64,000 bases of DNA from Candidatus Bathyarchaeota archaeon (GTDB lineage Archaea; Thermoproteota; Bathyarchaeia; 40CM-2-53-6; RBG-13-38-9): assembly GCA_963807605.1 (NCBI GenBank), contig CAWECG010000004.1, positions 608,001 to 672,000 of the forward strand, given 5' to 3'. The position numbers and the translations under genes were made by a program. This document shows, in pieces, positions 10,887 through 47,523 of this stretch. Each line of letters begins with the position of its first letter. Position 1 is the stretch's first letter. A model generated the notes under the pieces. That model searched no databases, was not told where the DNA came from, and saw only the letters and a program-made list of their open reading frames with translations.

Positions 10887-12272
10887 TTGACACTCCACTG
10901 TCTAAAGATAGGGGATTCTAGCTTCTATCATGTTCATCGGTTGATGGGTCATAGCGTTGTTGCGCTCCCACCTCATTCCATCCCACTTTAGAAGGTTAGG
11001 GCGTGTCATCACCCTGTTAATGACTCCCGCAGGGAGCTTAACACCCTGAGTGAGTCCTATATTTACAACACCAATAGCATCCCTATGAGCCTCCAATCCA
11101 CAGTTAAGGCATTTGAAGAGTCTACCTTTTCTCTCAATACTTTCTGACCCACATCTCACGCATCTGCTTGAAGTCTTGTATTCACTGACTTCTTTGACCC
11201 GTATCCCATACTCCTGCGCTGTATGTTCCAGTCTTTGAATAATATAGTTGAAACTCCAGAAGTTGTGGATCATTGAATTGCTCTTCTTGCCTTTGCTATT
11301 GTCATCTCTGATGCCTGTTAGGTCTCCTATCACAATCTTTGAAACACCGAGATCATATCAGATCTCTTACCATGACCCTTATCATGGTGTTGATGGCCTG
11401 CCTGAATCTCCGTTGCCTTATACTGTAGAGTTTGCTGAGTCGCTTCGAACTCTTCTTGCCGTTGACTGCTTCAAGCATGCTCTGGCAATCCGCTATTCTC
11501 CTATTCCAGTACCACCAATCTGCTAGGAGGTTTCTTCCATTGTATGCTATTGGTTGCCTCCATCCTTCAAGCCAGATGGTGAACAGGTTGATTACGCCGG
11601 GGTCGATGTAGCATGTCTTGGAGCCTTTCGGCTTAAACAATGGCTTTACCTTTACAGCCTGAAAGACACGCCACTTCCCATCAACCTCATCATAGATGAC
11701 CTCGGCCTTTCCCTGCTTGCCACCCCATCTTGTCTTGCCTCGGATGGGTATCTTCAACTTCTTTGGTAGCTTCATCACTTCATCCTTCAGGCTGTAGATG
11801 TCGTTTCTCAGAACCATCATCAGCCTGTAGTTTCCATGTCGCTTCCAGTATCCAGGCATACACACCTTCTCCATGTTTGGCGGAAGTTTGCCTTCTCGCT
11901 CCAGCTGCTTTAATGCAAAGAAGCCCCTCCATGACTCGTTGCTCTTCCTGATGATCTGTTGAGATGTCGCCGAATCGATTAGTGGTGTGTACTTTCGATA
12001 GAGGTCTTTGCATCTCCAATCTAGGGGTTGATAGTTCATGTATGCCTGTCTTTTGCGGTAGGTTGCCTCATTCCAAAGTTTGGCACAGTTGGTAGCTTTA
12101 TCCCTCAGCATCCTCTCTTGCTCCACCGTTGGATCAAGGATGAAGGTGTTAGTTCTCCGCATGAAACTACCAGCATTATCATTGAAACACCAAGACATTT
12201 AAGCCCCAAACGTCTCACTCTTGTCGCAATTCATCCCACCCCTGAAGGAGTGGGCTTTCTTGCTAGTTCAAT
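10887..12272 (-). mobile_element. IS200/IS605-type tnpB-only element, family 1 copy 1
   Basis: TTAC target, AAAG + LE hairpin; GAAT + RE hairpin + TCAA. Confidence 0.9.
10902..12162 (-). pseudogene. tnpB: tnpB family 1, +1 frameshift near 11359
   Basis: Split into two ORFs; extra C relative to copy 4. Confidence 0.85.
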
Positions 12273-12304
12273 GTAAGATAGTCCGACATGTAGGCTGACT
12301 GGCT

Positions 12305-12583
12305 ATGTCGGAACCCGAGATAACCACTGTAAGCAAGAAAGGGCAGGTCGTAATACCGAGGGGGATAAGGGAGAAGATGAAGCTGGTGCCGAAGACAAGA
12401 CTTCTTGTATACGATTACGATGACACCTTGATTCTCAAGAAACTCATCATTCCGGACGTCGAGATCGAGATGAAGGCCTTGTGGAAAGAGATCGATAAGA
12501 GAATAGACAAGAAGCACAGACCCACCCAGAGAGAGGTAGATGAGGAGATACACGCCTACAGGAAAGAGAAGAAAGCTGAGTGA
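12305..12583 (+). CDS. AbrB/MazE-type antitoxin
   Basis: TTVSKKGQVVIPRGIREKM. Confidence 0.9.
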   Translation: MSEPEITTVSKKGQVVIPRGIREKMKLVPKTRLLVYDYDDTLILKKLIIPDVEIEMKALWKEIDKRIDKKHRPTQREVDEEIHAYRKEKKAE

Positions 12584-13020
12584 GCATGCTCAGAGCGGTG
12601 CTGGACACAAATGTCTTAGTGTCGAGTCTATTAGCCCTCGGAAAGCCGAGAGAGCTCCTGACGAGAATTCTTAGGAGAGAAATGGCTCTCGTGATCTCGA
12701 AAGAGATCCTGAACGAGTTCATGAGAGTTATGAGAAGAAAGAGATTCTCAGAGTATGCTACAGAAGAGCAGGTTAGGAGATTTGTTGAAAACGTCAAGAA
12801 ATCCGCTGAGCTTGTGATGTTGAAAAACGATCTTAAAGTGATCGATGAAGATCCGAAAGACGATATCGTCATAAACACGGCATTAGATGGAAGTGCTGAC
12901 CTCATAATCTCAGAAGATCATCATCTGCTCAGTCTCAGAGAATTCAAAGATATCAAGATCGTATCCGTAGACGAAGCTTTACGCATACTCAAGAAGGGCA
13001 GCCGAGCATGCAAGCCTTAG
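12580..13020 (+). CDS. vapC: PIN-domain toxin
   Basis: AVLDTNVLVS, DPKDD, IISEDHHLL; overlaps the antitoxin. Confidence 0.9.
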   Translation: MSMLRAVLDTNVLVSSLLALGKPRELLTRILRREMALVISKEILNEFMRVMRRKRFSEYATEEQVRRFVENVKKSAELVMLKNDLKVIDEDPKDDIVINTALDGSADLIISEDHHLLSLREFKDIKIVSVDEALRILKKGSRACKP

Positions 13021-13032
13021 TTCCACATTTAC

Positions 13033-14399
13033 ATTGAACTAGCAAGAAAGCCCACTCCTTCAGGGGTGGGATGAATTGCGACCAGAGTGAGACGTTTGGG
13101 GCTTAAATGTCTGGTGTTTCAATGATAATGCTGGTAGTTTCATGCGGAGAACTAACACCTTCATCCTTGCCCCAACAATGGAGCAAGAAAGAACACAGGG
13201 ATAGAGCTACCAACTGTGCTAAACTTTGGAACGAGGCAACCTACCGTAGAAGACAGGCATACATGAACTATCAACCGATAGATTGGGAGTGCAAAGACCT
13301 CTATGAAAAGTATACACCGCTAATCGATTCAGCGACATCTCAACAGATCATCAGAAAGAGCAACGAATCATGGAGGAGCTTCTTTGCCCTAAAGAAGATG
13401 GAGCGAGAAGGCAGACTGCCACTAAATATTGAGAAAGTATGTACGCCAGGGTTCTGGAAAAAAGATGGAAAATACAGGCTGATGATGGTTCTGAGAAACG
13501 ACATCTACAGCCTGAAGAATGGAACGATGAAGATATCCATCCGAGGCAAACCCAGATGGGGTGGCAAGCAGGGAAAAGCCGAGGTCATCTATGATGAGGC
13601 TGATGGGAAGTGGCGTGTCTTTCAGGCAGTAAAGGTAAAGCCATTGTTTAAGCCGAAAGGCTCCAAGACATGCTACATCGACCCCGGCGTAATCAACCTG
13701 TTCACCATCTGGCTTGAAGGATGGAGGCAACCAATAGCATGCAATGGAAGAAATCTACTCTCTGATTGGCGGTACTGGAATGAAAGAATAGCAAGTTGCC
13801 AGAGCACTCTTGAAACAATCAATGGTAAGAAAAACTCAAAGCAGCTAAGCAGATTCTACAGGATGAGACAACGGAGATTCCGACAGGCCATCAACACTAT
13901 GATAAGAAGCGTGGCCAGAGACCTCTATGATCTCGGTGTTTCAAAGATTATGATAGGAGATCTAACGGGCATAAGAGAGAACAATGGAGAGAATAGTCAC
14001 AAGGTCAACTCAATGATTCATAACTTTTGGAGCTTCAACTACATTATTCAAAGACTAAAGTGTACAGCGCAGGAATATGGCATAAGAGTGAAAGAAGTCA
14101 GCGAATACAAAACTTCAAGCAGATGCATAAGATGCAGCTCAGAAAACATTGAGAGAAAAGGCAGACTCTTCAAGTGTCTAGAATGTGGATTGGAGGCTCA
14201 TAGGGATGCTATTGGTGTTGTAAATATAGGACTCACTCAGGGGGTTAAGCTCCCTGCGGGAGTGATTAACAGGGCGATGACACGCCCTAACCTTCTAAAG
14301 TGGGATGGAATGAGGTGGGAGCGCAACAACGCTATGACCCATCAACCGATGAACATGATAGAAGCTAGAATCCCCTGTCTTTAGGCAGGGGAGTGTCAA
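13033..14399 (+). mobile_element. tnpB-only element, family 1 copy 2
   Basis: TTAC at 13029-13032, AAAG-CCCACTCC TTCA GGGGTGGG hairpin; RE ends TCAA at 14396-14399. Confidence 0.9.
13142..14384 (+). pseudogene. tnpB: tnpB family 1; frameshift about 18 codons after the native ATG plus a small in-frame deletion
   Basis: The native MRRTN frame hits a stop near 13202; the N-terminus in the ORF track is an alternative frame. Confidence 0.75.
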
Positions 14400-17811: not shown

Positions 17812-17867
17812 GCAACTCAAGAAGGCAACAGCGCTGGTGAAGAGATCTTTGGCACAATCGCTTAGGT

Positions 17868-19265: not shown

Positions 19266-20144
19266 TTGTCCCTTTCAAAAAGGTCGTATCTGTTTGCAAT
19301 ATTGGTGATATTTGCTTCATCTTACTCTCAGTACTGGGTCAGGGGTCTGGGTGCGATCTCGAGCTTCTTCGTTGTTTACGGGATCCCACTGATTATCACC
19401 GGCATTATCTTTGGTTCTGAAATTAATCAAAGAGCCTTCAAGAACACGTACAGGGCTTTGAAGTTTGGACTGGCCTCCTTTGGAGGCTTTACAATTCTGG
19501 GCACTCTTGCATCCGTTGCTATCTTCTATATGTTATTGATTCTTGATCCTTCATCTGTGAATCTCTTGAATCGACCTAACCCGGTGCTTAATATACCGCC
19601 TGGGCTTGCCTGGGTAATGATAGGGGTCTCATTCATTATTGTTGGACCGGCTGAGGAGTATATCTTCAGGGGTTTCGTTTACGGCGGCATGCTCAACCTT
19701 TTCAAGGAACGGCATTGGCTAAGCCTCGCCTTTGCATCATCAATAATATTTGCAATTGTGCATCTGTATTATGCATTAGTGTATAGTATTGCTTCGCTAG
19801 TCCAATTTGCTGACCTTGTAACCTTCGGCATGGCGATGGCGATCACATACTACCTCTCAGACGGAAATCTTGTCGTCCCCGCACTGATCCACGGAGCATA
19901 CGACGCCACAGGATTCCTCGGTGTAGCAGTATCATCAGACCTAGGACTCTTCTTCAGAGGAATGTTGGTTTTGACTGGAATAATCGTCGGCTTGGGCCTC
20001 TTCTTCCAGAATATCCTCAGAAGGAGAGAACAAACCCGAGACATTTCAACCTATACAGGCATGATCTCATCACACTACCAAGTCAGCTACCCACGTCTAA
20101 AGGCGTGGGCTTGGAATGGTGATACCAACGCAAGAGTTGACTAG
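19266..20144 (+). CDS. CPBP (CAAX/Abi) intramembrane metalloprotease; native C-terminus replaced by IsrB element sequence
   Basis: EEYIFRG, FAIVH, HGAYD. Removing the element restores ...HYQMKN-stop. Confidence 0.9.
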   Translation: MSLSKRSYLFAILVIFASSYSQYWVRGLGAISSFFVVYGIPLIITGIIFGSEINQRAFKNTYRALKFGLASFGGFTILGTLASVAIFYMLLILDPSSVNLLNRPNPVLNIPPGLAWVMIGVSFIIVGPAEEYIFRGFVYGGMLNLFKERHWLSLAFASSIIFAIVHLYYALVYSIASLVQFADLVTFGMAMAITYYLSDGNLVVPALIHGAYDATGFLGVAVSSDLGLFFRGMLVLTGIIVGLGLFFQNILRRREQTRDISTYTGMISSHYQVSYPRLKAWAWNGDTNARVD

Positions 20145-20310
20145 CCTAAGTCCAACTGGGACTACGCCTTCGGAGCTAAAAGCACGTACAGACGCCGCCC
20201 TAATCTGTACCTCTGCGGCAGAACCACTGAATGCCACAACCAGTAGCAATACTGGTTTAAGCTCTGTTGGCTTTGGCGAAGGGAAACTCGACTCTTGGCG
20301 GAGAGGGGCC
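20082..20310 (+). ncRNA. HEARO-like omegaRNA scaffold of IsrB; guide is the 5' flank at about 20062-20081
   Basis: GTCA..CCCACG hairpin, GTTGACTAGCCT, CTACG, GTACAG..CTGTAC stem and GGCGAAGGG motifs upstream of the PLMP-type ORF. Confidence 0.75.
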
Positions 20311-21368
20311 GCAATCGGTAACATCCCCGTCACCTCCTCTGACGGAACACTTCTAATGCCATGCAAACCAACAAAAGCAAGAAAGCTGCTCAGAGATGGC
20401 AAAGCAACAAAGAAGTGGAGCAAACTCGGAATCTTCTACATAAAACTAAACTTCACACCAAAACAACCAGCCACACAACCACTCGTCGTCGGCATCGACC
20501 CAGGATCCAAGTTTGAAGGCATCTCAATCGTAGGAACTGAAGATACAGTGCTTAACGTCATGTCAGAAGCCACAACATGGGTTAAGAAAGCAGTTGAAAC
20601 AAGAAGAGAAATGCGACGAGCTAGAAGACACCGAAACACTAGATGTCGTCCTTGCAGATTCAGTAATAGGCCAACACGAAGAAACAGATTACCACCATCA
20701 ACAAAAGCCAGATGGGACACAAAACTCAGAATAATTCAGCAACTCCAGCAAACCTTACCACTATCCGTAGCCATAGTTGAAGATATTAAAGCCAAGACAA
20801 GGAAGGGTCAACGGAAATGGAACAGCAACTTCAGTCCCATAGAGGCAGGCAAACAATACTTCTACACTGAACTCAGAAAGACTGGACTAAAAGTAGAAAC
20901 AAGACAAGGCTCAGAGACGCAGCAACTCAGACAGGCATATGGTTTAAAGAAGCTGCGTAACAAATCAAAACCTGTATTTGAAACTCATTGTATTGACGCA
21001 TGGACGCTAGCCGCCTCAATCACTGGAGCTAAGCAGCCAACAACCAGAAGCCTACACTACCTAATTCCTATTCGTTTTCATCGAAGGCAACTGCACAGAT
21101 TTGAAGCGGAAAAAGGAGGAGCTAGGAAAAGGTATGGTGGCACCAACTCGCTTGGAATCAAGAAGGGCACACTCGTCGAGCACGCTAAATACGGTTTCTG
21201 TTATGTTGGAGGCAACTTGAAAGACCGCTTCAGCCTACACGACTTAACAACAGGAAAAAGACTAATACAAAACGCTAATAGAACAGATTTCAAAATGCTA
21301 ACAAGAATATCCTTCAGACACCAATTCCTCCCACCCATAAATGGCGTGGGTTTCCTTGGTGATTTTTG
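20082..21368 (+). mobile_element. IS200/IS605-type IsrB element
   Basis: Starts GTCAG + hairpin; the far end has a hairpin followed by ATGA. Confidence 0.85.
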
Positions 21369-21369
21369 A
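20314..21369 (+). CDS. isrB: IsrB (IscB homolog without HNH; RNA-guided nickase family)
   Basis: IPV..LLMPC (PLMP), VGIDPG, RREMRRARR bridge helix, IVED, HCID; no HNH insertion; start codon uncertain. Confidence 0.85.
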   Translation: MGNIPVTSSDGTLLMPCKPTKARKLLRDGKATKKWSKLGIFYIKLNFTPKQPATQPLVVGIDPGSKFEGISIVGTEDTVLNVMSEATTWVKKAVETRREMRRARRHRNTRCRPCRFSNRPTRRNRLPPSTKARWDTKLRIIQQLQQTLPLSVAIVEDIKAKTRKGQRKWNSNFSPIEAGKQYFYTELRKTGLKVETRQGSETQQLRQAYGLKKLRNKSKPVFETHCIDAWTLAASITGAKQPTTRSLHYLIPIRFHRRQLHRFEAEKGGARKRYGGTNSLGIKKGTLVEHAKYGFCYVGGNLKDRFSLHDLTTGKRLIQNANRTDFKMLTRISFRHQFLPPINGVGFLGDF

Positions 21370-27116: not shown

Positions 27117-28441
27117 GTGACATCCTCCCATGGCTAAAGCCGTGGGCTTCCCGCTTCAACATCTTTGCTTACCATTCCTCTTAGGGATGGCAGAGGCTCA
27201 GACTCTGCGGGCGTATTCACCCACCGTCCGTGGGCATAGTCGGGTTTGAAGCCTGACAGACCAATCTTCTTGATTAGTTTAGCCGAGTTCTCGTCTCTTG
27301 GAATCGACTCACCGCAATTCAGGCATATATGATCTCTCTCGCTCAGGTCTTTCGGCACCCATGATAGGCAGTCGTGGCAGAATTGTGTGGTACCCCATGG
27401 GTCGACCGGCATGAACCATTTGCCGAGCAGGTTGGCTTTGAATTGTGCCTTACGGAAGAACCTTCCGGGCGAAGCGTCTTGGAGGCTCTTGGCTAGGCAG
27501 TGATTCTTCACCATGTTAGCTACAGCTAGTCTTTCCAAGAATAGGATATCAGTGGTCTTGTACAGTGTTGCCAGTGTCTTGTTTTGGTAGTCGTCTCTCT
27601 GACAGGCTACATGAAGGTGTTGCCTTGCCACTCTCAAAGCCAGCTTTCTCCTATTTCTTGAGCCCTTCTTTGCTCTTGATATTACTCGCTGCAGTCTCCT
27701 GATCTTCTCCTCAGACTTTCTCAGAAACTTCGGTGGCTCCATCGTGGTTGCATCTGAAAGCGTTAGGAACTTAATCAGCCCTATGTCTCCCCCTTTGATC
27801 CGCTCATCTGGAATCTGCGCGATGGGGGTCTTCTCCTGATTTGGAATCTTGCAGGCGAATACCACATACCACTGTCCAGCATTGTATTTTACAGTCAAAG
27901 TTTTGACTTGACCTTCCACCGGTCTATGCATGAAGATTCGGACATTCCCTATCCCCGAGAGGTACAGCTTACTGTTGCATAGTTTGAAGCCTGATTGTGG
28001 GTAGGTGAAGGAGAGATACTTCCTCGGATGTTTCTGCTTGGGAAATCTTGCTCTACCCTCAAAGTAGTTCTTGAACGATCCGGCAAGCCTTGTGGCAACA
28101 CTCTGGACAACCTGACTATGTATTCCCTGAAGATTCTCGTCTTCTCGTCTAAACTCTAGCGCCTTCAGCCTCAAGTCGGTTCTGCTCAGACTGATGTGCT
28201 CCTGTTTCCAAGTACCGATCTTCAGGTCCCTAAGTGTGTTGTATAGCTCACACAATGTGGACAGGTGGCTTTTCATCAGCCTTCCCTGCCCCACTTTAGG
28301 GTATATACGGTACTTGTAGGCTAGAAGCATTCTTAACCATCAATAAATACATGTTTTGAACAAAATTTAAACATCTGGCATCTCACTCTGGAACGCAATT
28401 CATCCCACGGCTAAAGCCGTAGGTTTTCTCGCGCACTTTCT
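27117..28441 (-). mobile_element. tnpB-only element, family 2 copy A (intact)
   Basis: TTAT target, AAAA + LE hairpin; GAAG + RE hairpin + TCAC. Confidence 0.9.
27134..28330 (-). CDS. tnpB: TnpB family 2 with canonical D-E-D
   Basis: AYKYRIYP, GGDIG, FLERL, zinc finger, PRDENS. Confidence 0.95.
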   Translation of the reverse strand: MLLAYKYRIYPKVGQGRLMKSHLSTLCELYNTLRDLKIGTWKQEHISLSRTDLRLKALEFRREDENLQGIHSQVVQSVATRLAGSFKNYFEGRARFPKQKHPRKYLSFTYPQSGFKLCNSKLYLSGIGNVRIFMHRPVEGQVKTLTVKYNAGQWYVVFACKIPNQEKTPIAQIPDERIKGGDIGLIKFLTLSDATTMEPPKFLRKSEEKIRRLQRVISRAKKGSRNRRKLALRVARQHLHVACQRDDYQNKTLATLYKTTDILFLERLAVANMVKNHCLAKSLQDASPGRFFRKAQFKANLLGKWFMPVDPWGTTQFCHDCLSWVPKDLSERDHICLNCGESIPRDENSAKLIKKIGLSGFKPDYAHGRWVNTPAESEPLPSLRGMVSKDVEAGSPRL

Positions 28442-29860: not shown

Positions 29861-29862
29861 GC

Positions 29863-30589: not shown

Positions 30590-30897
30590 GGTTCTCTCGT
30601 ACTCTTCTGTCAACCCTATATCCCAAACATGCTGCAACCTAAATCCGTATACCACTTCTTTCGTGCAGAACCACTCAATGAAATTGCCCGGTTCATCACC
30701 TCGCCCTCCTTGACGCAGAATTCATCTGTTCTTTGGAGGGTCGGAAACGGTAGTATGTAGATGCATGCTCCAATCACCTGACCAGTCGGGTGCAGAGGCT
30801 TTTCCTGGAATCCTACGATTCGCATCTCGTGGTCGAGGGTCACTATGGAGCCTCTTCTTGCTTGGTCTGAATCTTCGGCATCAAAGAACATTATGTC
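30590..30897 (-). pseudogene. 3' fragment of a sugar-phosphate nucleotidyltransferase
   Basis: IVTLDHEMRIVGFQEKP..IGACIYILP; the 5' part is absent. Confidence 0.65.
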
Positions 30898-32269
30898 TTG
30901 ACACTCCCCTGCCTAAAGATAGGGGATTCTAGCTTCTATCATGTTCATTGGTTGGTGGGTCACTGCCCTTCTAGGCTGCCACCTCATTCCATCCCATTTT
31001 AGAAGGTTAGGGTGCGTCATCACCCTGATAGCTGTTCCTTCACGTTGAAGGTTTGCCATTTTCAAGACTCCAATAGCATCCCTGTGAACTTCCATCCCAC
31101 ACTCCAAGCATTTGAAGAGTCTGCCTTTTCTCTCAATGTTTTCTGAGCTGCATCTTATGCATCTGCTTGAAGTCTTGTATTCGCTGACTTCTTTTACTCT
31201 TATGCCGTATTCTTGTGCCGTACACTTTAGTCTTTGAATGATGTATTTGAAGCTCCAGAAGTTATGGATCATAGCGTTGCTCTTCTTTCCTTTATCGTTG
31301 CCGTCTCTGATGCCTGTTAGGTCTCCTATCACAATCTTTGAAACACCGAGATCATAGAGGTCTCTTACCATGACTCTTATCATGGTGTTGATGGCCTGCC
31401 GGAATCTCCGTTGCCTTATCCTGTACAGTCTATTGAGTTGCTTTGAACTTTTCTTGCCGTTGATTGTTTCAAGTATGCTCTGGCAGTCTGCTATTCTATC
31501 GACCCAGTACCACCAATCAGAGAGTAGATTTCTCCCACTGTATGCTATTGGTTGTTTCCATCCTTCAAGCCAGATGGTGAACAGGTTGATTACACCGGGG
31601 TCGATGTAGCATGTCTTGGAGCCTTTCGGCTTGAATAATGGCCTAACCTTTACGGCCTGAAAGACACACCACTTTCCAGCCAAATCATCATAGATGACCT
31701 CGGCTTTCCCCTGTCTTCCGCTCCATTTTGGCTTGCCTCGGATGGGCATCTTCAACTTCTTTGGTAGTCTCATCACTCCATCCTTTACACTATAGCAGTC
31801 GTTCCTCAGAACCATCATCAGCCTGTATTTCCCATCTCTCTTCCAGTATCCTGGCATACACACCTTCTCCATGTTTGGCGGAAGTTTGCCTTCTCGCTCC
31901 AGCTGCTTTAATGCGAAGAAGCTTCTCCATGACTCGTTGCCCTTCCTGATGATCTGTTGAGATGTCGCCGAATCGATTAGTGGCGTATACTTTCGATAGA
32001 GGTCTTTGCACTCCCAATTTAGGGGTTGATAGTTCATGTATGCCTGTCTTTTGCGGTATGTCGTCTCATTCCAAAGTTTGGCACAGTTGGTAGCTTTATC
32101 CCTCAGTATCCTCTCTTGCTCCACCATTGGATCAAGGATGAAGGTGTTGGTTCTACGCATGAAACTACCAGTATTATTATTGAAATACCAGACATTTAAG
32201 CCCCAAACGTCTCACTCTGGTCGCAATTCACCCCACCCCTGAAGGAGTGGGCTTTCTTGCTAGTTCAAT
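30898..32269 (-). mobile_element. tnpB-only element, family 1 copy 3
   Basis: Same LE/RE; TTAC flank at 32270-32273. Confidence 0.9.
30913..32160 (-). CDS. tnpB: TnpB family 1 (intact)
   Basis: YIDPG, IVIGDL, VSEYKTS, zinc finger, HRDAIG. Confidence 0.95.
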   Translation of the reverse strand: MRRTNTFILDPMVEQERILRDKATNCAKLWNETTYRKRQAYMNYQPLNWECKDLYRKYTPLIDSATSQQIIRKGNESWRSFFALKQLEREGKLPPNMEKVCMPGYWKRDGKYRLMMVLRNDCYSVKDGVMRLPKKLKMPIRGKPKWSGRQGKAEVIYDDLAGKWCVFQAVKVRPLFKPKGSKTCYIDPGVINLFTIWLEGWKQPIAYSGRNLLSDWWYWVDRIADCQSILETINGKKSSKQLNRLYRIRQRRFRQAINTMIRVMVRDLYDLGVSKIVIGDLTGIRDGNDKGKKSNAMIHNFWSFKYIIQRLKCTAQEYGIRVKEVSEYKTSSRCIRCSSENIERKGRLFKCLECGMEVHRDAIGVLKMANLQREGTAIRVMTHPNLLKWDGMRWQPRRAVTHQPMNMIEARIPYL

Positions 32270-32370
32270 GTAAGCTTGGTTTTGGCTGCGGTGTATTCTT
32301 CAAGTTTCTTCTCAGCGTCAGACTGGCGTCTGATGAGTGCGATTAAGAAGCTTGTGTCTAGACACACCAT
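32270..32370 (-). pseudogene. vapC: vapC 5' fragment cut by the tnpB element
   Basis: MVCLDTSFLIALIRR..., directly after vapB, ending at the TTAC site. Confidence 0.8.
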
Positions 32371-32379: not shown

Positions 32380-32610
32380 TCAGAGTCTTGGTGTAGGGAC
32401 TTGTAGTTCTTGTCTTTCTTTGAGTATCTGCTCGAGTGTATCGACGAGCTCATCGTCAGGCTTGAGGCCTCTGATGTAGTTGAGAAGGGTTCCCTCAACT
32501 TTCTTCTTTGATATCTTTAGGATTATGTCTGTGAAGGATTCCTTTTCGCCCTTCAGTCTCGCCAGGGCTTGGTATGCTTCTTCTGAGATCGTTATCGTCT
32601 TGTGTGCCAT
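32380..32610 (-). CDS. vapB: Archaeal VapB-type antitoxin (DUF217-like)
   Basis: KTITISEEAY..L..LK.EKESFTDII. Confidence 0.88.
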   Translation of the reverse strand: MAHKTITISEEAYQALARLKGEKESFTDIILKISKKKVEGTLLNYIRGLKPDDELVDTLEQILKERQELQVPTPRL

Positions 32611-32637
32611 AGGGGTCACGTTGCCTACTGATCTTCT

Positions 32638-34350: not shown

Positions 34351-34869
34351 ACTGAAGCCGGCTATTATTATTGGTGGTGAGGCAGCGTTATTTAGACTTA
34401 TTATTCATAGTGATATTGTGATATCGACATTCCCAACATTGAGTGTAGCATTTGATAGAGAAATGCATTCAAGAAACCATCAATATTGAGTGTATTCAAT
34501 CGAGTTCTTGAAACTCTGCCATCTATCATTCGTGGCTAGAGGAAACTAGAGTCGATGTTGAAATGGAGTGACAAGCAGCTCAACAAGAAACAGCACGAAG
34601 CACTTGAAGCAATCTCGCTCTTTCACGTAGAGGCACCACAAGGTGCGCGCTTGAAGCCACTATGTCTGCAATATTAGAACTTCAACGTATTTACGTCCTT
34701 CAATCATGAGGTTTGCGTGTTCAACTTCGTGTCCCGACTGTTAACAGCTGGAAGAATGTCCCACGAACGTAACAGAACCCTTTTCAGAACACCGATTTTT
34801 CCACATATTAAAGTAAGGAAGAAAGTCTTAAGTAAGACCCTAAAATTTTGTATTAATGCGGTGGGTGTA

Positions 34870-35130
34870 ATGACCAAAGTAGTGAGTGTTACTCAAAAGG
34901 GCCAGGCAACCATTCCTAAAGCCCTGAGAGACAAGTTCAGAGTTAAAGGAAAAGTTCTCGTGGTTGAGACGTCGGAAGGCATACTCTTTAAACCCCTGCC
35001 ACGTCCTGAAGACGACTTCGGCTCATTAAAGCAGCACTTCAAAGGAGAGACGGCGCGAAAGGTTCTGGACGAAGCCAGGAGTAGAGACGAGCTGCGGGAG
35101 AAGAGGCTGCTGGAGAAAATCAGAGATTGA
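34870..35130 (+). CDS. AbrB/MazE-type antitoxin
   Basis: VSVTQKGQATIPKALRDKF; start moved to ATG 34870; GTCTTA-AG-TAAGAC palindrome upstream. Confidence 0.9.
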   Translation: MTKVVSVTQKGQATIPKALRDKFRVKGKVLVVETSEGILFKPLPRPEDDFGSLKQHFKGETARKVLDEARSRDELREKRLLEKIRD

Positions 35131-35522
35131 ACATTGTCTTCGACACTGAAGCTCTCTTAGCCTTCTATCTGGGTGAACCCAGAGGCAGAGAAGTTGAGAA
35201 ATACCTTGCAAAGGTGATGGAGGGAGAACTGAAGGGTTACCTGAACATACTCACCCTGTCTGAGCTCTACTATATCCTGTATAGGAACAGCCCTGCATTA
35301 GCTGAGGAGAAGGAGCAGAACCTCCGCAGCTATGGTTTGGATATAGTTCCAATCGATGACGATGGCCTCTGGAAAGAAGCTGCAAAGATGAAGGGAAAGC
35401 ATGCTCTCTCACTAGCAGATGCCTTCGCAGCGGCAACTGCAAAGATAAAGAAGGCAAGCCTCCTAACAGGCAGGGATAAAGAGTTTCATAGTCTGGACAT
35501 CCCCATAGAACGAATAGACTAA
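35127..35522 (+). CDS. vapC: VapC PIN toxin
   Basis: VFDTEALL, LSELYY, LSLADAF, TGRDKEF. Confidence 0.9.
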   Translation: MNIVFDTEALLAFYLGEPRGREVEKYLAKVMEGELKGYLNILTLSELYYILYRNSPALAEEKEQNLRSYGLDIVPIDDDGLWKEAAKMKGKHALSLADAFAAATAKIKKASLLTGRDKEFHSLDIPIERID

Positions 35523-35751: not shown

Positions 35752-37124
35752 TTGACACTCACCCGCCTAAAGGCGGGGTGATTCTAGCTTCTATACTGTT
35801 CACCGGTCTAGTGTTCACTGGCCTGTTAGCCTGCCACTTCATGCCATCCCACTTTAGAAGGTCAGGGTGCGTCATCACCCTTACAGCTGTTCCTTCACGT
35901 TGAAGGTTTGCCATGTTCAAGACTCCAATAGCATCCCTGTGAACTTCCATCCCACACTCCAAGCATTTGAAGAGTCTGCCTTTCCTCTCAATGTTTTCTG
36001 AGCTGCATCTTATGCATCTGCTTGAAGTCTTGTATTCGCTGACTTCTTTCACTCTTATGCCGTATTCTTGTGCCGTACACTTTAGTCTTTGAATGATGTA
36101 TTTGAAGCTCCAGAAGTTATGGATCATAGCGTTGCTCTTCTTTCCTTTATCGTTGCCGTCTCTGATGCCTGTTAGGTCTCCTATCACAATCTTTGAAACA
36201 CCGAGATCATATAGATCTCTTACCATGACTCTTATCATGGTGTTGATGGCCTGCCGGAATCTCCGTTGCCTTATCCTGTACAGTCTACTGAGGTGCTTCG
36301 AACTTTTCTTGCCGTTGATTGTTTCAAGTATGCTCTGGCAATTTGCTATTCTATCAACCCAGTACCACCAATCTGCTAGGAGGTTTCTCCCGCTGAATGC
36401 TATTGGTTGCCTCCATCCTTCAAGCCAGATAGTGAACAGGTTGATAATGCCGATGTCGATGTAGCAGGTCTTGGAGCCTTGCGGCTTGAAGATTGGCTTT
36501 ATTTTAACAGCCTGAAAGACACGCCACTTCTTATCTATGTTATCATAGATGACTTCGGCTTTCCCCTGTCTTCCGCTCCATTTTGGCTTGCCTCGGATGG
36601 GTATTTTCATCTTCTTTGGTAGCTTCATCACTCCATCCTTCAGGCTGTAGATGTCGTTTCTCAGAACCATCATCAGCCTGTACTTTCCATCTCGCTTCCA
36701 GTATCCAGGCATACACACCTTCTCAATATTTAGTGGCAGTCTGCCTTCTCGCTCCAGCTGCTTTAATGCGAAGAAGCTCCTCCATGACTCGTTGTTCTTC
36801 CTGATGATCTGTTGAGATGTCGCCGAATCGATTAGTGGTGTATACCTTTGATAGAGGTCTTTGCACTCCCAGTCCAGGGGTTGATAGTTCATGTATGCCT
36901 GTCTTTTGTGGTAGGTTGCCTCATTCCAAAGTTTAGCACAGTTGGTAGCTCTTTCTCGCAGTATCCTCTCTTGCCCCACTGTTGGAGCAAGGATGAAGGT
37001 GTTAGTTCTCCGCATGAAACTACCAGTATTATTATTGAAAAACCAGACATTTAAGCCCCAAACGTCTCACTCTGGTCGCAATTCATCCCACCCCTGAAGG
37101 GGTGGGCTTTCTTGCTAGTTCAAT
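35752..37124 (-). mobile_element. tnpB-only element, family 1 copy 4
   Basis: LE as in other copies; variant RE hairpin, still GAAT/TCAA. Confidence 0.9.
35759..37015 (-). CDS. tnpB: TnpB family 1 (intact)
   Basis: Same motifs as copy 3. Confidence 0.95.
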   Translation of the reverse strand: MRRTNTFILAPTVGQERILRERATNCAKLWNEATYHKRQAYMNYQPLDWECKDLYQRYTPLIDSATSQQIIRKNNESWRSFFALKQLEREGRLPLNIEKVCMPGYWKRDGKYRLMMVLRNDIYSLKDGVMKLPKKMKIPIRGKPKWSGRQGKAEVIYDNIDKKWRVFQAVKIKPIFKPQGSKTCYIDIGIINLFTIWLEGWRQPIAFSGRNLLADWWYWVDRIANCQSILETINGKKSSKHLSRLYRIRQRRFRQAINTMIRVMVRDLYDLGVSKIVIGDLTGIRDGNDKGKKSNAMIHNFWSFKYIIQRLKCTAQEYGIRVKEVSEYKTSSRCIRCSSENIERKGRLFKCLECGMEVHRDAIGVLNMANLQREGTAVRVMTHPDLLKWDGMKWQANRPVNTRPVNSIEARITPPLGG

Positions 37125-39232: not shown

Positions 39233-39334
39233 TCATCTCATCCGGTCAAGTGTTTCCTTTGCTGCCTCAAGAAATTCGTTGGCTTTTCTGAGGGCATAGT
39301 CAGCTTCCTTTGCACTGCTCTTTGTTTCAAGGCC
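39233..39334 (-). pseudogene. HEPN toxin C-terminal fragment
   Basis: GLETKSSAKEADYALRKANEFLEAAK, a typical last HEPN helix. Confidence 0.7.
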
Positions 39335-40718
39335 TTGACACTCCCATGCCTAAAGACAGGGGATTCTAACTTCTATCATGTTCATCGGTTGATGGGTCAT
39401 AGCGTTGTTGCGCTCCCACCTCATTCCATCCCACTTTAGAAGGTTAGGGCGTGTCATCGCCCTGTTAATGACTCCCGCAGGAAGCTTAACCCCCTGAGTG
39501 AGTCCTATATTTACAACACCAATAGCATCCCTATAAGCCTCCAATCCACATTCTAGACACTTGAAGAGTCTGCCTTTCCTCTCAATGTTCTCTGAGCCGC
39601 ATCTTACGCATTTGCTCGATGTTTTGTATTCGCTAACTTCTCTCACTCTTATGCCGTACTCTTGCGCTGTATACTTTAGTCTTTGAATAATGTAGTTGAA
39701 GCTCCAGAAGTTGTGGATTATAGCGTTGCTCTTCTTTCCATTATCATTGTTCTCTCTTATGCCTGTCAGATCTCCTATCATAATCTTTGAAACACCGAGA
39801 TCATAGAGGTCTCTTGCCATGCTTCTTATCATGGTGTTGATTGCTTGTCGGAATCTCCGTTGCCTTATCCTGTAGAGTTTGTTGAGTCGCTTCGAACTCT
39901 TCTTGTCGTTTATTGTTTCAAGTTTGCTCTGGCATTCTGCTATTCTATCGACCCAGTACCACCAATCTGCTAGGAGGTTTCTTCCACTGTATGCTATTGG
40001 TTGCCTCCACCCTTCAAGCCAGATGGTGAACAGGTTAATTACACCAGGGTCGATGTAGCATGTCTTGGAGCCTTGCGGCTTGAATAATGGCTTTGTTTTA
40101 ATTGCCTGAAAGACACGCCACTTCCCATCAACCTCATCATAGATGACCTCGCCCCTACCCTGCTTACCATTCCATCTAGGTTTACCTTTGAAGGGTATCC
40201 TCAGTCCTTTAGGTAGTTTCATCACTCCATCCTTTACACTGTAGCAGTCTTTTCTCAGAACCATCATCAATTTGTATTTTCCATTTCTCTTCCAGTATCC
40301 CGGCATGCATACCTTCTCAATATTTGGTGGCAGTCTGCCTTCTCGCTCTAGCTGCTTTAATGCGAAGAAGCCCCTCCATGACTCGTTGCATTTCCTGAGT
40401 ATTTGTTGTGTTGTCGCTGAATCGATTAGTGGTGTGTACTTTTGATAGAGGTCTTTGCACTCCCAATCTAGGGGTTGATAGTTTACGTATGCCTGTCTTT
40501 TGCGGTAGGTTGCCTCATTCCAAAGTTTGGCACAGTTAGTAGCTCTATCCCTCAGTATCCTCTCTTGCTCCACTGTTGGAGCAAGGATGAAGGTGTTAGT
40601 TCTCCGCATGAAACTACCAGTATTATTATTGAAAAACCAGACATTTAAGCCCCAAACGTCTCACTCTGGTCGCAATTCATCCCACCCCTGAAGGAGTGGG
40701 CTTTCTTGCTAGTTCAAT
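39335..40718 (-). mobile_element. tnpB-only element, family 1 copy 5
   Basis: Same LE/RE; TTAC flank at 40719-40722. Confidence 0.9.
39350..40609 (-). CDS. tnpB: TnpB family 1 (intact)
   Basis: Same motifs as copy 3. Confidence 0.95.
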   Translation of the reverse strand: MRRTNTFILAPTVEQERILRDRATNCAKLWNEATYRKRQAYVNYQPLDWECKDLYQKYTPLIDSATTQQILRKCNESWRGFFALKQLEREGRLPPNIEKVCMPGYWKRNGKYKLMMVLRKDCYSVKDGVMKLPKGLRIPFKGKPRWNGKQGRGEVIYDEVDGKWRVFQAIKTKPLFKPQGSKTCYIDPGVINLFTIWLEGWRQPIAYSGRNLLADWWYWVDRIAECQSKLETINDKKSSKRLNKLYRIRQRRFRQAINTMIRSMARDLYDLGVSKIMIGDLTGIRENNDNGKKSNAIIHNFWSFNYIIQRLKYTAQEYGIRVREVSEYKTSSKCVRCGSENIERKGRLFKCLECGLEAYRDAIGVVNIGLTQGVKLPAGVINRAMTRPNLLKWDGMRWERNNAMTHQPMNMIEVRIPCL

Positions 40719-40876
40719 GTAAGAGAGGATTATTACCGCATCAAGAAGCTCTTCTTGAGAGCTTTTTCAGCTTCTTCTAGTTTTGTCGATGCGACCTCAA
40801 GTGATCTGGCGGTCTTCGCAGCATCTGGTCTTCCCCGCCTTAGCAGCCTCTTCTGAAAGCACTCTGTGAGATTCAT
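40719..40876 (-). pseudogene. HEPN toxin N-terminal fragment
   Basis: MNLTECFQKRLLRR..SLEVA..KLEEAE..AVIILSY; ATGA overlap with MNT; 1-nt frameshift. Confidence 0.75.
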
Positions 40877-41421
40877 CTTTTGATCATCGGTAGGTTGCCT
40901 TGAATGACTATTCCGTCAGTGATTATGCTTTCATAGAAGGCTTCATCCTGTTTGGCCTTCTCTTCCCACTCCGGGGAAGTGTAAACCAGAAGGTTGATGT
41001 TTCGATTAAGTCTCTTTTCAAAGGCAGCCATCTCAACCTTTTCAGCTCTTCCTATTACTAGGAGATCGATATCGCTGCCCTTGTCATCTTCTCCTCTTGC
41101 GCAACTTCCATATATTATGATCGAGCACTCCTCGTAATTCTGTTTGAGATACTGGGTTAAGGGTTTCACGTCACGAAGGAAGTGTGCTATCTTAAAGTGT
41201 CTGAACATAGGGTCCTCCATATCTGCCTTGAAGAATACTAGGTTGGCCTTCTTGGTTCTCACTAGAAAACCGTCGATTGTAAGTGAATCTAGGAAGGTCT
41301 TGGCAGTGCTGGCGCTTACTCCTGCGTGGGAGGCGACTTCTCGGAGATAGAACTCTCTGTAGGGCTCGTTGAGAAAGACCTTCAATATTCTCAGACCTGG
41401 ATATTCGAATAGATTTTCCAT
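40873..41421 (-). CDS. wHTH-MNT (minimal nucleotidyltransferase) antitoxin
   Basis: FYLREVA HTH; IYGSCARGEDDKGSDIDL. Confidence 0.9.
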   Translation of the reverse strand: MENLFEYPGLRILKVFLNEPYREFYLREVASHAGVSASTAKTFLDSLTIDGFLVRTKKANLVFFKADMEDPMFRHFKIAHFLRDVKPLTQYLKQNYEECSIIIYGSCARGEDDKGSDIDLLVIGRAEKVEMAAFEKRLNRNINLLVYTSPEWEEKAKQDEAFYESIITDGIVIQGNLPMIKR

Positions 41422-41436
41422 AGAACAATCGTTCAA

Positions 41437-41460
41437 TATAAAGAACAATTGTTCTTTATA
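41437..41460. promoter_or_regulatory. Perfect 24-bp palindrome adjoining the TATA box of the MNT-HEPN operon
   Basis: TATAAAGAACAA-TTGTTCTTTATA. Confidence 0.65.
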
Positions 41461-41591
41461 AAAATTCGCCCTCATATAAGACGGCGCAGGGACTTGACTG
41501 CGGGTAGCGCGTGCAAACCTTCATCGGCGTCTTCCTTGGGCCTAATTGCTGTTCTGACCGCAATGCCATTTGTCTTTTGGACTGCGCGGTT

Positions 41592-41984
41592 GTGACATCC
41601 TCCCATGGTTAAAGCCGTGGGCTTCCCGCTTCAACATCTTTGCTTACCATTCCCCTTAGGGATGGCAGAGGCTCAGACTCTACGGGGGTATTCACCCACC
41701 GTCCATGGGCATAGTCGCGTTTGAAGCCTGACAGACCAATCTTCTTGATTAGTTTAGCCGAGTTCTCGTCTCTTGGAAGAGACTCACCGCAATTCGGGCA
41801 CATATGATCTCTCTCGCTCAGGTCTTTCGGCACCCATGATAGGCAGTTGTGACAGAATTGTGTAGTACCCCATGGATCGATTGGTATGAACCACTTACCG
41901 AGTAGGTTGGCTTTGAAACGGGTTTTCCGTATGAATGTTCCTGGTGAGGCATCTTGAATGCTCTTGGCTAGGCAGTGGTTCTTC
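41592..41984 (-). mobile_element. Family 2 copy B: 3' tnpB remnant with intact right end
   Basis: Near-identical to 27117-27510; similarity stops at about 41984. Confidence 0.9.
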
Positions 41985-42440
41985 CCAGCGTTCTTTCAGC
42001 CCGATCAATAATAAGACGCAGAGGCTCAGGCTTCTCATTGTCTTGGAAGACCTCTGGATGATGCCTATCTAATTCTTCCAAGAGCCTCTTTGCGTAATCA
42101 AAACAAAAATCTCTAGAAGACTCTGGAAGAGCTCCTCTTCTCGTCGCCATTTAAACAGGATAGCGGTATACTCATCCTGCGAGATAGGCTGGTTTGCTCG
42201 GCGGGCCTTACGTCTCTGAGCTTCTTCCTTTTTTATCTTGGATCTGAAGAGTGCCATTAGGGCGCTGCTCTTGCCCACTCCTTGATTGCCGACCAGACCG
42301 ATAAGGCCGCCCTCCGTCACTTCCAATCTATCTGTAACTTTGAGCTGCTTCCGGCCATACGTACCAGTTGTCGACCCAAGTTGAATAGCGACTTTCCGAG
42401 GCCAGTTGACTTGCCCATGCGTAGACCTCTTCGATCGGCA
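41985..42440 (-). pseudogene. P-loop NTPase fragment
   Basis: GLIGLVGNQGVGKSS Walker A; frameshifted and truncated at the tnpB remnant. Confidence 0.55.
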
Positions 42441-44171: not shown

Positions 44172-44194
44172 CAATCAAGAGATCATTTTCAAAA

Positions 44195-45239: not shown

Positions 45240-45800
45240 TTAAGCCCGTCTTTGTTTTGCTTTTCTTTGAAGAGCCTTTAGCAAGGGAAGAACGTCGGCC
45301 CTTTCAGCAATAGCATATAGGTAATGACTGTCCAATTTCAACTTGCTATTCTCAAGTACGCTGAGGACGTCGACTTCATCTTGACTTCTTCTGTCTCTTC
45401 TTGCGAGCTTGTTGATTATGAAGTCTTCAGGTCCGATTATCCAGAACTTGGATTCTGCTATGTTGACTTTTTGTCTTCTTCGAAGGCACTCTGCATCCAA
45501 GGTTATCCCGTCGGGTTTGATCCAGACCTTTACCTCCGTTGCAGTCTTTATGTTTGTTAGAATGAAGCAGGGTGTTCCCTCCGTGAAGGAGGATACTTGA
45601 AAACCAGCGTTTTCGAGTTCTTTCTTGAGTTGCATCGGATCCTGTGATTTCATAGCTATAGCTATGTCGATGTCGACGGTTGCTCTGATTAGGCCATATG
45701 CGGGTAGCGCATATCCGCCAATCAGCATATAGTCTACGTGTGACCTGTCAAGTGCTTGTGCTAGGTTCTGCAGAGTTTCTGATATTGAGGGCAATCTCAT
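45240..45800 (-). CDS. Nucleotidyltransferase-fold protein (TA-like)
   Basis: YMLIGGYA..YG..RATVDIDI, PEDFIINKL..R.QD..D. Confidence 0.85.
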   Translation of the reverse strand: MRLPSISETLQNLAQALDRSHVDYMLIGGYALPAYGLIRATVDIDIAIAMKSQDPMQLKKELENAGFQVSSFTEGTPCFILTNIKTATEVKVWIKPDGITLDAECLRRRQKVNIAESKFWIIGPEDFIINKLARRDRRSQDEVDVLSVLENSKLKLDSHYLYAIAERADVLPLLKALQRKAKQRRA

Positions 45801-46152
45801 TCATCTCGATAAACCTCTCGTAAGGGTCGATGCCGGAGTCGATAATCTTGTTCCTTAATCTTAGTTGTTCTAGCGCAGTACGTATGTCGTTGTCGTTCAT
45901 CTTGATCATCATGTCGTTGATCGCATGCAAGTTTTCAAGCATCATGACTCCTAGAGGGGAGAGCGTAGCGATCTTCTTTGGTCTGCCTCGGCCATTTGGA
46001 CATTGTGTCAACTCCAATGATCCGGCTCTCTCCAGTTCTTTTATTAGGCGCATTTTGCTTGTGTGGCTGCCGCCTAGGATGCTAAGAATCTCGCGTACGC
46101 CAAGTTGCTTCTTGGAGCAGAGTTCTAGCAGTTGCATCTCCGAACTGAACAT
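45748..46152 (-). CDS. wHTH protein, putative antitoxin/regulator of the NTase
   Basis: HTH with GRGRPKK wing; overlaps the NTase gene. Confidence 0.7.
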   Translation of the reverse strand: MFSSEMQLLELCSKKQLGVREILSILGGSHTSKMRLIKELERAGSLELTQCPNGRGRPKKIATLSPLGVMMLENLHAINDMMIKMNDNDIRTALEQLRLRNKIIDSGIDPYERFIEMNEIALNIRNSAEPSTST

Positions 46153-46170
46153 CTATGGCGCGCGCCCACT

Positions 46171-46195
46171 TTTTGTTCCTAAAACGGGAACAAAA
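46171..46195. promoter_or_regulatory. Operator-like inverted repeat upstream of wHTH-NTase
   Basis: TTTTGTTCC-N7-GGAACAAAA. Confidence 0.65.
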
Positions 46196-46198
46196 CAT

Positions 46199-47523
46199 GT
46201 GACATCCTCCCACGGCTAAAGTCGTGGGCTTCCCGCTTCAACATCTTTGCTTACCATTCCCCTTAGGGATGGCAGAGGCTTAGACTCTACGGGCGTGTTC
46301 ACCCACCGTCCGTGGGCATAGTCGGGTTTGAAGCCTGACAGACCAATCTTCTTGATTAGTTTAGCTGAATTCTCGTCTCTTGGAAGAGACTCACCGCAAT
46401 TCGGGCATATATGATCTCTCTCGCTCAGGTCTTTCGGCACCCATGATAGGCAGTTGTGGCAGAATTGTGTGGTACCCCATGGGTCGACCGGCATGAACCA
46501 TTTGCCGAGCAGGTTGGCTTTGAAACTGGTTTTCCGTATGAATGTTCCTGGTGAGGCGTCTTGAATGCTTTTGGCTAGGCGGTGGTTTCTCATCATGTTG
46601 ATTACAGACAGTTTCTCCAAGAATAGGACATCGCTGGTTTTGTACAGTGTTGCTAGTGTCTTGTTTTGCTGGTCGTCTCTCTGACATGCTACATGATGGT
46701 GTTGCCTTGCAAGTCTCAAAGCCAATTTTCTCCTATTTCCTGAGCCCTTCTTTGCTCTTGACATTACTCGCTGCAGCCTCTTGATCTTCTCCTCAGACTT
46801 TCTCAGAAACTTCGGTGGCTCCATCGTGATTCCATCTGAGAGTGTCAGGAACTTAATCAGCCCTATGTCTCCACCTTTGATCCGCTCATCTGGAATCTTC
46901 TCGATGGGGGTCTTCTTTTTATCTGGAATTTTGCAGGCGAATATCACATACCATTGTCCAGCATTGTACTTTACAGTCAAAGTTTTGACTTGACCTTCCA
47001 CCGGTCTATGCATGAAGAGTCGGACATTCCCTATCCCCGAAAGGTACAGCTTATTGTTGCACAACTTGAAGCCTGATTGTGGATAGGTGAAGGAGAGATA
47101 CTTCTTTGAATGTTTATTTTTGGGGAATCTTGCTCTACCCTCAAAGTAGTTCTTGAATGATTCTCGCAAGCCTTGTAGCAACGCTCTGGACGACTTGGCT
47201 ATGTATTCCATGAAGATTCTCGTCTTCTCGTCTAAACTCTAGCGCCTTCAGCCTCAAGTCGGTTCTGCTCAAGCTGACATGCTCCTGTTTCCAAGTACCA
47301 ATCTTCAGATCCCTAAGTTTATTGTATAGCTCACACAATGCGGATAGGTGGCTTTTCATCAGCCTTCCCTGCCCCGCCCTGGGGTAGATACGGTACTTGT
47401 AGGCTAGAAGCATCTCAGCACCTAACAAATATATGTCGGCCCAGAAACTTAAGCATCTAGCACCTCACTCTGGAACGCAATTCATACCACGGTTAAAGCC
47501 GTGGGTTTTCTTGCGAATCTTCT
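46199..47523 (-). mobile_element. tnpB-only element, family 2 copy C
   Basis: TTAT flank at 47524-47527; RE ends TCAC. Confidence 0.9.
46216..47413 (-). pseudogene. tnpB: tnpB family 2, +1 frameshift near 47163
   Basis: Two overlapping ORFs colinear with copy A. Confidence 0.85.

Follow-up and report, generated by a model that had tools for sequence, protein, structure and literature searches.

Co-clustering of TnpB elements and toxin–antitoxin loci in a plastic region of a Bathyarchaeia genome is probably explained by insertion tolerance

Two labile regions of the Acidianus hospitalis W1 genome hold most of its transposable elements and most of its vapBC toxin–antitoxin (TA) pairs; the orphan orfB (i.e., tnpB) elements of this archaeon insert after TTAC, and the vapBC pairs were proposed to maintain the regions (You et al. 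2011, PMC3119797). Here, we analyzed a 64,000-nucleotide stretch from a Candidatus Bathyarchaeota archaeon (the window; positions 608001-672000 of contig 4, in a genome of 2.65 Mb in 5 contigs), in which IS200/IS605 elements encoding TnpB lie against or within TA genes. Coordinates are window positions unless a contig is named, and the finding spans 10887-47523. As in A. hospitalis, TTAC-targeting orfB/tnpB elements and vapBC pairs are co-concentrated in one part of the genome; regional co-clustering is already known from that archaeon (2011), and the present locus is a new, well-resolved Bathyarchaeia example. Unlike the earlier study, we report base-level adjacency and toxin genes broken by insertion. 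The genomes also differ in content: here there are ~12 TA loci compared with 26 vapBC pairs, yet many more TnpB copies (39), and the region includes at least one core gene (pyrG). We consider it probable that TnpB elements and TA cassettes gather in one disposable, plastic region in which only harmless insertions persist. A preliminary description, which placed 7 of 8 IS605-type copies at TA loci, had raised the prospect of an undescribed functional TnpB–TA coupling; if real, such a coupling would give the ancestors of Cas12 a host-level function.

Several other described systems offer points of comparison. In TnpB homing, as set out in 10.1101/2023.11.20.567912, the guide is the flank 3′ of the element's right end and the target is the vacated target-adjacent motif (TAM) plus flank. 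The two element families of the window (families 1 and 2, below) share with IS200/IS605 homing elements their architecture, the TTAC or TTAT target, the guide position, an ISDra2-like TnpB (family 2), and a 3′ RNA fold (family 1), with no difference in kind. Homing by IS200/IS605 TnpB was reportedly worked out by Karvelis in 2021 and Meers in 2023. A separate precedent comes from archaeal tnpB genes located directly downstream of MazE/RHH genes, where TnpB is the proposed toxin and carries His in place of the RuvC-III Asp (Altae-Tran et al. 2023, PMC10691335). The window resembles that module in having archaeal tnpB near AbrB/MazE-type genes, and copy 2 is co-oriented downstream of abrB-vapC. 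However, the PIN gene and the element's left end separate abrB from tnpB at copy 2, every tnpB here lies within a bounded element present in 9-16 copies, and the RuvC-III Asp is kept, with no His replacement. Identity with the RHH/MazE–TnpB module was therefore rejected on both antitoxin adjacency and the catalytic substitution. Lastly, a TA system is reported to maintain the integrative conjugative element SXT (PMC2654960). TA pairs also lie inside easily lost DNA in the window and, by analogy, might stabilize it; unlike SXT, half of the element-adjacent TA loci here have dead toxins.

Domains were called by Pfam scans and repeat families by repeat finding, which together resolved two families of tnpB-only IS200/IS605 elements in the window (Table 1). 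Family 1 (1367–1386 bp) is present in five copies, and family 2 (1325 bp) in two full copies and a 393-bp right-end fragment. Alignment of all genomic copies with their flanks set the element ends to a single base. Genome-wide, TTAC precedes 14 of 16 family 1 copies, whose terminus reads ...GTGTCAA, and TTAT precedes seven of nine family 2 copies, which end in ...GATGTCAC. Insertion at a fixed tetranucleotide, without terminal inverted repeats or target duplication, identifies both as IS200/IS605 elements of the tnpB-only (IS1341) type. OrfB_IS605 (PF01385) and the zinc-ribbon TNB domain (PF07282) scored above cut-off in copies 2-5, A, and C, while in copy 1 they are divided between two open reading frames (ORFs); full-length tnpB frames occur in four of the five family 1 copies and in copy A. 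Each end keeps its subterminal hairpin, the one at the right end showing compensatory changes, and the 3′ 230 nt of family 1 adopt a conserved predicted RNA fold with eight covarying pairs. All complete copies fall between 1.32 and 1.39 kb and contain no passenger DNA. The genome has four matches to the Y1 (HUH) TnpA (PF01797), two of them without internal stops (contig 4, 558 kb; contig 5, 72 kb), and, given these open frames, mobilization in trans is possible. On contig 4, 21 of 26 elements lie on one strand (P 0.0025), a bias that fits replication-coupled insertion into single-stranded DNA, as is known for the IS200/IS605 family.

The distribution of these elements is strongly uneven. TnpB (PF07282) matches number 39 genome-wide; the 28 on contig 4 all fall within 480-722 kb, a 242-kb region that makes up 9% of the genome and also contains nine of the 12 TA loci. 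Such a concentration recalls labile regions as defined in Sulfolobales, yet pyrG, a core gene, lies inside. All six PIN matches in the genome are <2 kb from a TnpB element. Contigs 2 and 3 each carry an MNT-HEPN pair (at 81 and 419 kb, respectively) that is distant from any element. HepT/DUF86 has no match in the genome, and neither of the two genomic RHH_1 matches falls within the plastic region.

Distances between elements and TA loci were assessed with permutation-type tests after element DNA had been removed. Ten of the 39 elements lie ≤250 bp from a TA locus, which is highly improbable if every TTAN site is equally available (P 1e-14 for the genome, 3e-7 for the region). When sites in the region are limited to intergenic DNA and TA loci, the signal falls to P 0.027 with a distance of 250 bp, 0.1 with 50 bp, and 0.2-0.4 with 0 or 1000 bp. 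The span 10887-47523 illustrates why: ~32% of it is element-derived, and once annotated non-TA genes are also set aside, just 10.8 kb is left, of which 61% is ≤250 bp from a TA locus. Under this tolerated-DNA null, finding at least seven of eight copies near TA loci has a probability of 0.12. Because the window was chosen for showing the pattern, marginal P values are weakened further. Across the region, 16–22% of non-element genes are ≤250 bp from an element, compared with five of eight TA loci (the relE locus uncounted). Richness in target words was rejected as a cause, as the density of TTAC/TTAT at TA loci is below the genome average (9.3 versus 12.7 sites per kb). The genome-scale association is thus real because TnpB elements and TA loci share one region, and the fine-scale association is at most marginal after allowing for tolerance. 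Permutation testing, as called for in the preliminary description, returns a strong signal against TTAN sites genome-wide that fades when insertions are restricted to DNA where no gene is broken, which backs the more conservative reading also offered there, namely, that insertions simply survive in dispensable DNA. More generally, strong genome-wide co-localization statistics can vanish under a tolerated-site null.

Several points weigh against this interpretation. Under the tolerated-site null, no non-TA ORF may take an insertion, which is too strict for an accessory region, and a real fine-scale excess, with P between 3e-7 and 0.03, may exist. Gene calls were crude (greedy ORFs of ≥70 amino acids), the list of broken non-TA genes is incomplete, and copy adjacencies across repeats were read from assembly contigs alone. 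The presence of pyrG means that the region is not purely dispensable. Furthermore, some TA loci were hit twice: relE carries two insertions, the vapBC pair at 12305-13020 is flanked on both sides, and copy 5 and the family 2 fragment both adjoin the MNT-HEPN locus. These double hits look like more than uniform scatter.

Beyond proximity, we examined which genes the elements had broken. Three predicted type II VapBC systems in the window (12305-13020, 29462-30102, and 34717-35522) are intact, with an AbrB- or VapB-type gene overlapping or abutting a PIN gene; the first lies between the left ends of copies 1 and 2. Breakage elsewhere affects three toxin genes (vapC, HEPN, and relE) but not a single antitoxin gene. 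At copy 3, the vapC stump is homologous to PIN toxins found downstream of VapB homologs in relatives, and the vapC C-terminus is nowhere in the assembly. At copy 5, tblastn with the genome's own paralogs was too weak to identify the flanks, and orthologs from relatives proved decisive. HEPN is intact in three relatives (142–152 amino acids), against which the remnants lack 57 codons including the RxxRH core; rather than a functional type VII MNT-HEPN pair, the locus consists of an MNT and a dead HEPN gene carrying copy 5. Judged by their reading frames, vapC at copy 3 and HEPN at copy 5 are long dead, and the antitoxin genes are still open. Two explanations fit the 57-codon loss: two insertions collapsed by inter-copy recombination, or a TnpA-mediated adjacent deletion. 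Both HEPN breakpoints fall just 3′ of a Tyr codon, one after ...TCTTAC and the other, in relatives, between ...ATCTAC or ...ATCTAT and GG.... The third case lies past the window end, where relE is cut by a family 1 copy (contig 4, 718543-719913) and, 14 bp on, by an unrelated tnpB element (~719928-721313); after removal of both, the frame is continuous to a RelE-like C-terminal motif.

Within the plastic region, three of nine toxins are broken compared with ~3 of 190 other genes (Fisher P 0.001; 0.005 assuming six others broken). In-silico excision, which seeks reading frames that span elements, missed vapC and HEPN, whose flanks are more decayed, and returned only two clear non-TA coding hits: a 388-amino acid frame at 525 kb and the 3′ tip of pyrG. 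The former is split by a family 1 copy (contig 4, 525103), and the latter involves a family 2 copy (contig 4, 555030) at the extreme 3′ end of the CTP synthase gene, where it replaces the last codons. Broken toxins beside intact antitoxins fit selection, in that loss of a toxin is costless and removes a risk whereas loss of an antitoxin is lethal. The toxin-disarming signal is modest and expected. Disarming, one of the roles suggested earlier for a coupling, is borne out as an outcome, but ordinary selection explains it without TnpB guides. The locus nonetheless provides a clean case, in the little-studied Bathyarchaeia, of transposons that inactivate toxins and spare antitoxins.

The adjacencies reported in the preliminary description are real and mostly accurate. 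Copy 1 had been placed ~30 bp before the abrB start codon (12305), which matches the TTAC (ending 28 bp off) and the left end itself (32 bp). Copy 2 does begin 12 bp past the PIN stop at 13020, and the right end of copy 4 lies 229 bp beyond the PIN stop at 35522, as against ~230 bp. The ~170 bp between copy B and MNT is exact from the second Met and becomes 116 bp from the first ATG. For copy C, the distance holds (46 bp, measured to the ORF 45748-46152, for ~45 bp), although its neighbor is two overlapping ORFs and a candidate TA locus only. The placement of copy 3 inside vapC is correct for its left end, which abuts the first 34 codons, but its right end adjoins part of a sugar nucleotidyltransferase gene. 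Likewise, copy 5 has HEPN remnants on both sides, with the 57-codon gap and an upstream frameshift. The statement that only copy A lies elsewhere leaves out of account the AbrB-PIN pair at 29462-30102, which is intact and located ~1 kb from the left end of copy A. Across all loci, the geometry and orientation of element ends relative to TA genes are different each time.

Comparison of the copies indicates exchange among them. Pairwise identity within family 1 is mosaic, varying from 60 to 99% per 100-bp window; copies 3 and 4, for example, share their 3′ 500 bp at 97-99% (30898-31400 versus 35752-36250). Family 1 right ends fall into two subtypes with compensatory changes in the terminal hairpin. 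Together, these sequence patterns point to recombination or gene conversion among copies. Recombination among elements would account for copy 3 having two flanks unrelated to each other, and it may also lie behind the 171 bp missing from HEPN.

A functional coupling should be visible in the guides, each defined as the flank 3′ of the right end (the low-coordinate side for minus-strand copies). The earlier suggestion that several guides are directed against TA genes or promoters is borne out in part: among the eight window guides, one lies in the HEPN remnant (copy 5) and two lie upstream of nucleotidyltransferase operons (the family 2 fragment and copy C), but five fall in unrelated DNA. Each of 37 guides has one perfect genomic match, its own flank, where the sequence just before the guide is the right end of the element (GTCAA, GTCAC, or TTCAC, depending on the family) and not a TAM. 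We found no second TAM-flanked genomic target for any of the 37, and no match in the genome with ≤2 mismatches and a matching TAM at a TA locus. At the copy 5 guide site, the intact HEPN genes of relatives carry CTAC or CTAT and 3–4 mismatches to the guide. Exact scans of viral contigs for TAM plus guide, using the four TA-related guides, gave no match, nor did metagenome scans for the intact HEPN allele and the empty site of copy 2. RNA-guided exclusion of TA-bearing invaders, another proposed role, finds no support in these scans or in guides that match only their own flank. In homing, TnpB cleaves the donor site that an element has left, so that a guide "against" a TA gene records only where the element landed.

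The nucleases themselves resemble those of ordinary mobile elements. Family 2 TnpB aligns end to end with ISDra2 TnpB (E 4e-36 to PDB 8BF8) and keeps the canonical D-E-D site, its RuvC-III motif ...RDEN... aligning with the ISDra2 catalytic Asp; with that site kept, it is not a dead regulator. Family 1 TnpB (e.g., 35759-37015, minus strand) keeps the RuvC-I and RuvC-III Asp (...HRDA...) but has Gly-Asp at the canonical position of the RuvC-II Glu. Of the proteins with solved structures, TnpB-like L79 (PDB 9B0L), and not ISDra2 TnpB, is its best relative, and L79 also lacks an aligned Glu. L79 is presumably of a rearranged-site but active type, and the family 1 alignment suggests that this TnpB may belong to a branch with a rearranged catalytic site. 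TldR proteins, the would-be model for TnpB regulating neighboring genes, are TnpB relatives that reportedly lack nuclease activity and work as RNA-guided repressors (Wiegand et al. 2024). Unlike TldR, the TnpBs of the window keep catalytic residues, sit in mobile multi-copy elements, and have guides with no TAM-flanked genomic target; a TldR-like role was rejected on the intact family 2 site and the want of a second target.

Nor does the association extend to related genomes. Loci related to those of the window come from Bathyarchaeia or Candidatus Bathyarchaeota metagenome-assembled genomes (MAGs), of which one from Lake Pavin sediment is the closest. Among 20 relatives, the genomes richest in PIN genes (22–39 each) have no TnpB match, and in three well-assembled TnpB-bearing relatives, one of 29 TnpB matches is near a PIN gene, among the matches listed. 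We also scanned 93 ORFs flanking family 1 relatives at 30 loci of other archaea. The neighbors are mostly housekeeping genes (e.g., those for RIO kinase, CTP synthase, chorismate synthase, a tRNA synthetase, and DNA ligase), with a single PIN gene, in a same-genus MAG. A single distant locus among the 30 has TA-like neighbors; it occurs in Candidatus Asgardarchaeum abyssi (JBECUL010000054.1), where a family 1-related tnpB (48% identity) has MNT-like nucleotidyltransferase ORFs on both sides. A general TnpB–TA link is absent.

We propose a sequence of events that would account for the locus. The 242-kb plastic region (contig 4, 480-722 kb) would accumulate mobile DNA and TA cassettes alike. Y1 TnpA would move the tnpB-only elements in trans, as single strands that land 3′ of TTAC (family 1) or TTAT (family 2) on the lagging-strand template, and TnpB with its omega RNA would cleave the site left behind, prompting restoration of the copy there. 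Insertions would last only where nothing useful is broken, and the free DNA of this stretch consists mostly of TA genes and spacers. Breakage of a toxin would be harmless or helpful and that of an antitoxin lethal, which would leave inactivated toxins beside intact antitoxins and crowd the elements against TA operons. Recombination between copies would afterwards delete and reshuffle the flanks. The anatomy, target words, strand bias, regional clustering, broken toxins, mosaic copies, and loss of significance under the tolerated-site null are observations; the selection steps, mobilization in trans, and omega RNA activity are what we infer from them.

Other explanations differ in what they make of the same data. 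TA addiction might itself shape the pattern: direct repeats of the elements would drive deletions, working TA pairs could not be deleted, and elements would be left flanking TA loci. The mosaic copies and non-contiguous flanks show that inter-element recombination has occurred here, three intact vapBC pairs lie between same-strand element copies, and both the role proposed for vapBC in A. hospitalis variable regions (PMC3119797) and the reported maintenance of an integrative conjugative element (PMC2654960) lend precedent. But three element-adjacent TA loci have dead toxins that cannot addict, and insertions inside toxin genes go unexplained. We regard survivorship of this kind as on balance doubtful, albeit far from negligible, and it is compatible with tolerance in a disposable region. 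A stronger version of selection, in which toxin genes of archaeal plastic regions are true hot spots for fixed TnpB insertions beyond what tolerance predicts, appears rather improbable. Knockout of a toxin would then be positively selected, for instance where the antitoxin is damaged or the module burdensome; elements would be the chief route by which cells disarm TA modules, and the remaining pairs would shield element-rich DNA from deletion.

The dedicated coupling raised initially, in which TnpB would cleave or repress TA genes, incoming or resident, by means of omega RNA guides originating in TA flanks, is very unlikely. It could draw on the copy 5 guide in HEPN-derived DNA, on the guides 46-170 bp upstream of nucleotidyltransferase operons, and on the published TnpB clade paired with MazE/RHH antitoxins (PMC10691335). 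Yet guides that match only their own flank with no TAM before it, the mismatched HEPN site of relatives, the non-TA location of most window guides, the retained D-E-D site, orientations that differ by locus, and the lack of association in relatives or around family 1 homologs elsewhere all argue against it. We find it just as hard to accept that TA cassettes are element cargo, for instance, that the 757-bp AbrB-PIN segment moves with copies 1 and 2 as a composite transposon. The cassette does have TTAC at either side and two inward-facing left ends. However, excision by established IS200/IS605 chemistry requires a left end together with a right end on one strand, so that inverted left ends are not co-excisable, and complete copies are of fixed length with no passenger. 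The composite-transposon reading of this arrangement was rejected on its end geometry and because the cassette is single-copy in the genome. Finally, misjoins at near-identical repeats could have generated some junctions, above all the copy 3 flanks, which come from different genes and adjoin an element that shares 500 bp with copy 4. Such an artifact is barely credible, given that the HEPN and relE halves are on matching sides of their elements, that the assembly holds neither a reciprocal junction nor a vapC C-terminus, and that 39 copies were resolved within only 5 contigs. Tolerance of insertions in a shared plastic region remains the reading we favor, with families 1 and 2 looking like ordinary mobile elements.

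Table 1. Mobile elements, TA genes, and neighboring features of the window, with one TA locus beyond its end
Feature	Position	Strand	Remarks
IS607-like element	8788-10658	-	MerR-HTH serine-recombinase tnpA 10047-10658; divergent single-copy tnpB 8788-10050
Family 1, copy 1	10887-12272	-	tnpB frameshifted (ORFs 11353-12198 and 10902-11333); left end toward abrB
AbrB/MazE antitoxin and PIN toxin	12305-12583 and 12580-13020	+	Intact; PF04014 2e-7, PIN_3 2e-16, TIGR00305
Family 1, copy 2	13033-14399	+	Intact 425-aa tnpB
IscB-like gene	20082-21369	+	RRXRR domain, 417 aa; HEARO/omega RNA match overlaps start
Family 2, copy A	27117-28441	-	TTAT-targeting, ISDra2-like; intact 398-aa tnpB; guide flank upstream of glycosyltransferase gene
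Y1 (IS200-type) tnpA remnant	28829-29189	-	Between copy A and AbrB-PIN pair 29462-30102
PIN toxin and AbrB/MazE antitoxin	29462-29860 and 29863-30102	-	Intact
Sugar-phosphate nucleotidyltransferase, C-terminal fragment	30616-30897	-	Abuts copy 3 right end; unrelated to vapC
Family 1, copy 3	30898-32269	-	Intact 415-aa tnpB; mosaic with copy 4
Truncated vapC	32270-32370	-	First 34 codons; 65-71% identity to relatives' PIN toxins
VapB antitoxin (PF02697)	32380-32619	-	Intact, now orphan
AbrB-type antitoxin and PIN toxin	34717-35130 and 35127-35522	+	PIN toxin intact; AbrB true start probably later
Family 1, copy 4	35752-37124	-	Intact 418-aa tnpB; convergent with PIN gene
HEPN C-terminal remnant	39233-39334	-	~33 codons; directly 3′ of copy 5 right end; holds copy 5 guide
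Family 1, copy 5	39335-40718	-	Intact 419-aa tnpB
HEPN N-terminal remnant	40719-40876	-	1-nt frameshift
wHTH (winged helix-turn-helix)-MNT nucleotidyltransferase (antitoxin-type)	40873-41475	-	Intact; 61-71% identity to relatives' MNTs preceding intact HEPN
Family 2 fragment (copy B)	41592-41984	-	3′ 393 bp including right end
DUF2204/DUF6036 nucleotidyltransferase and overlapping 134-aa ORF	45240-45800 and 45748-46152	-	ORF without family match; candidate TA only
Family 2, copy C	46199-47523	-	Longest tnpB ORF 331 aa, N terminus shortened
Nitroreductase	47557-48129		ORF
AbrB-RelE pair	contig 4, 718103-721400		46-49 kb past window end

The window holds further mobile and decayed DNA. The IS607-like element lies within 230 bp of the copy 1 right end. 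The IscB-like gene represents a second class of RNA-guided-nuclease element in the stretch, and the HEARO RNA match at its start scored 90 bits against a gathering score of 83. Adjoining the truncated family 2 copy are P-loop fragments of an ABC ATPase gene (41968-42326, minus strand), a further instance of gene decay. Between the AbrB-PIN pair at 29462-30102 and the tnpA remnant, a 136-bp stretch (29184-29319) is 100% identical to contig 1, 329497-329632. Outside the finding's span, a 769-amino acid ORF (53795-56104, minus strand) contains, at 54303-55500, at least ~33 tandem copies of a 30-nt unit that encode 10-residue repeats.

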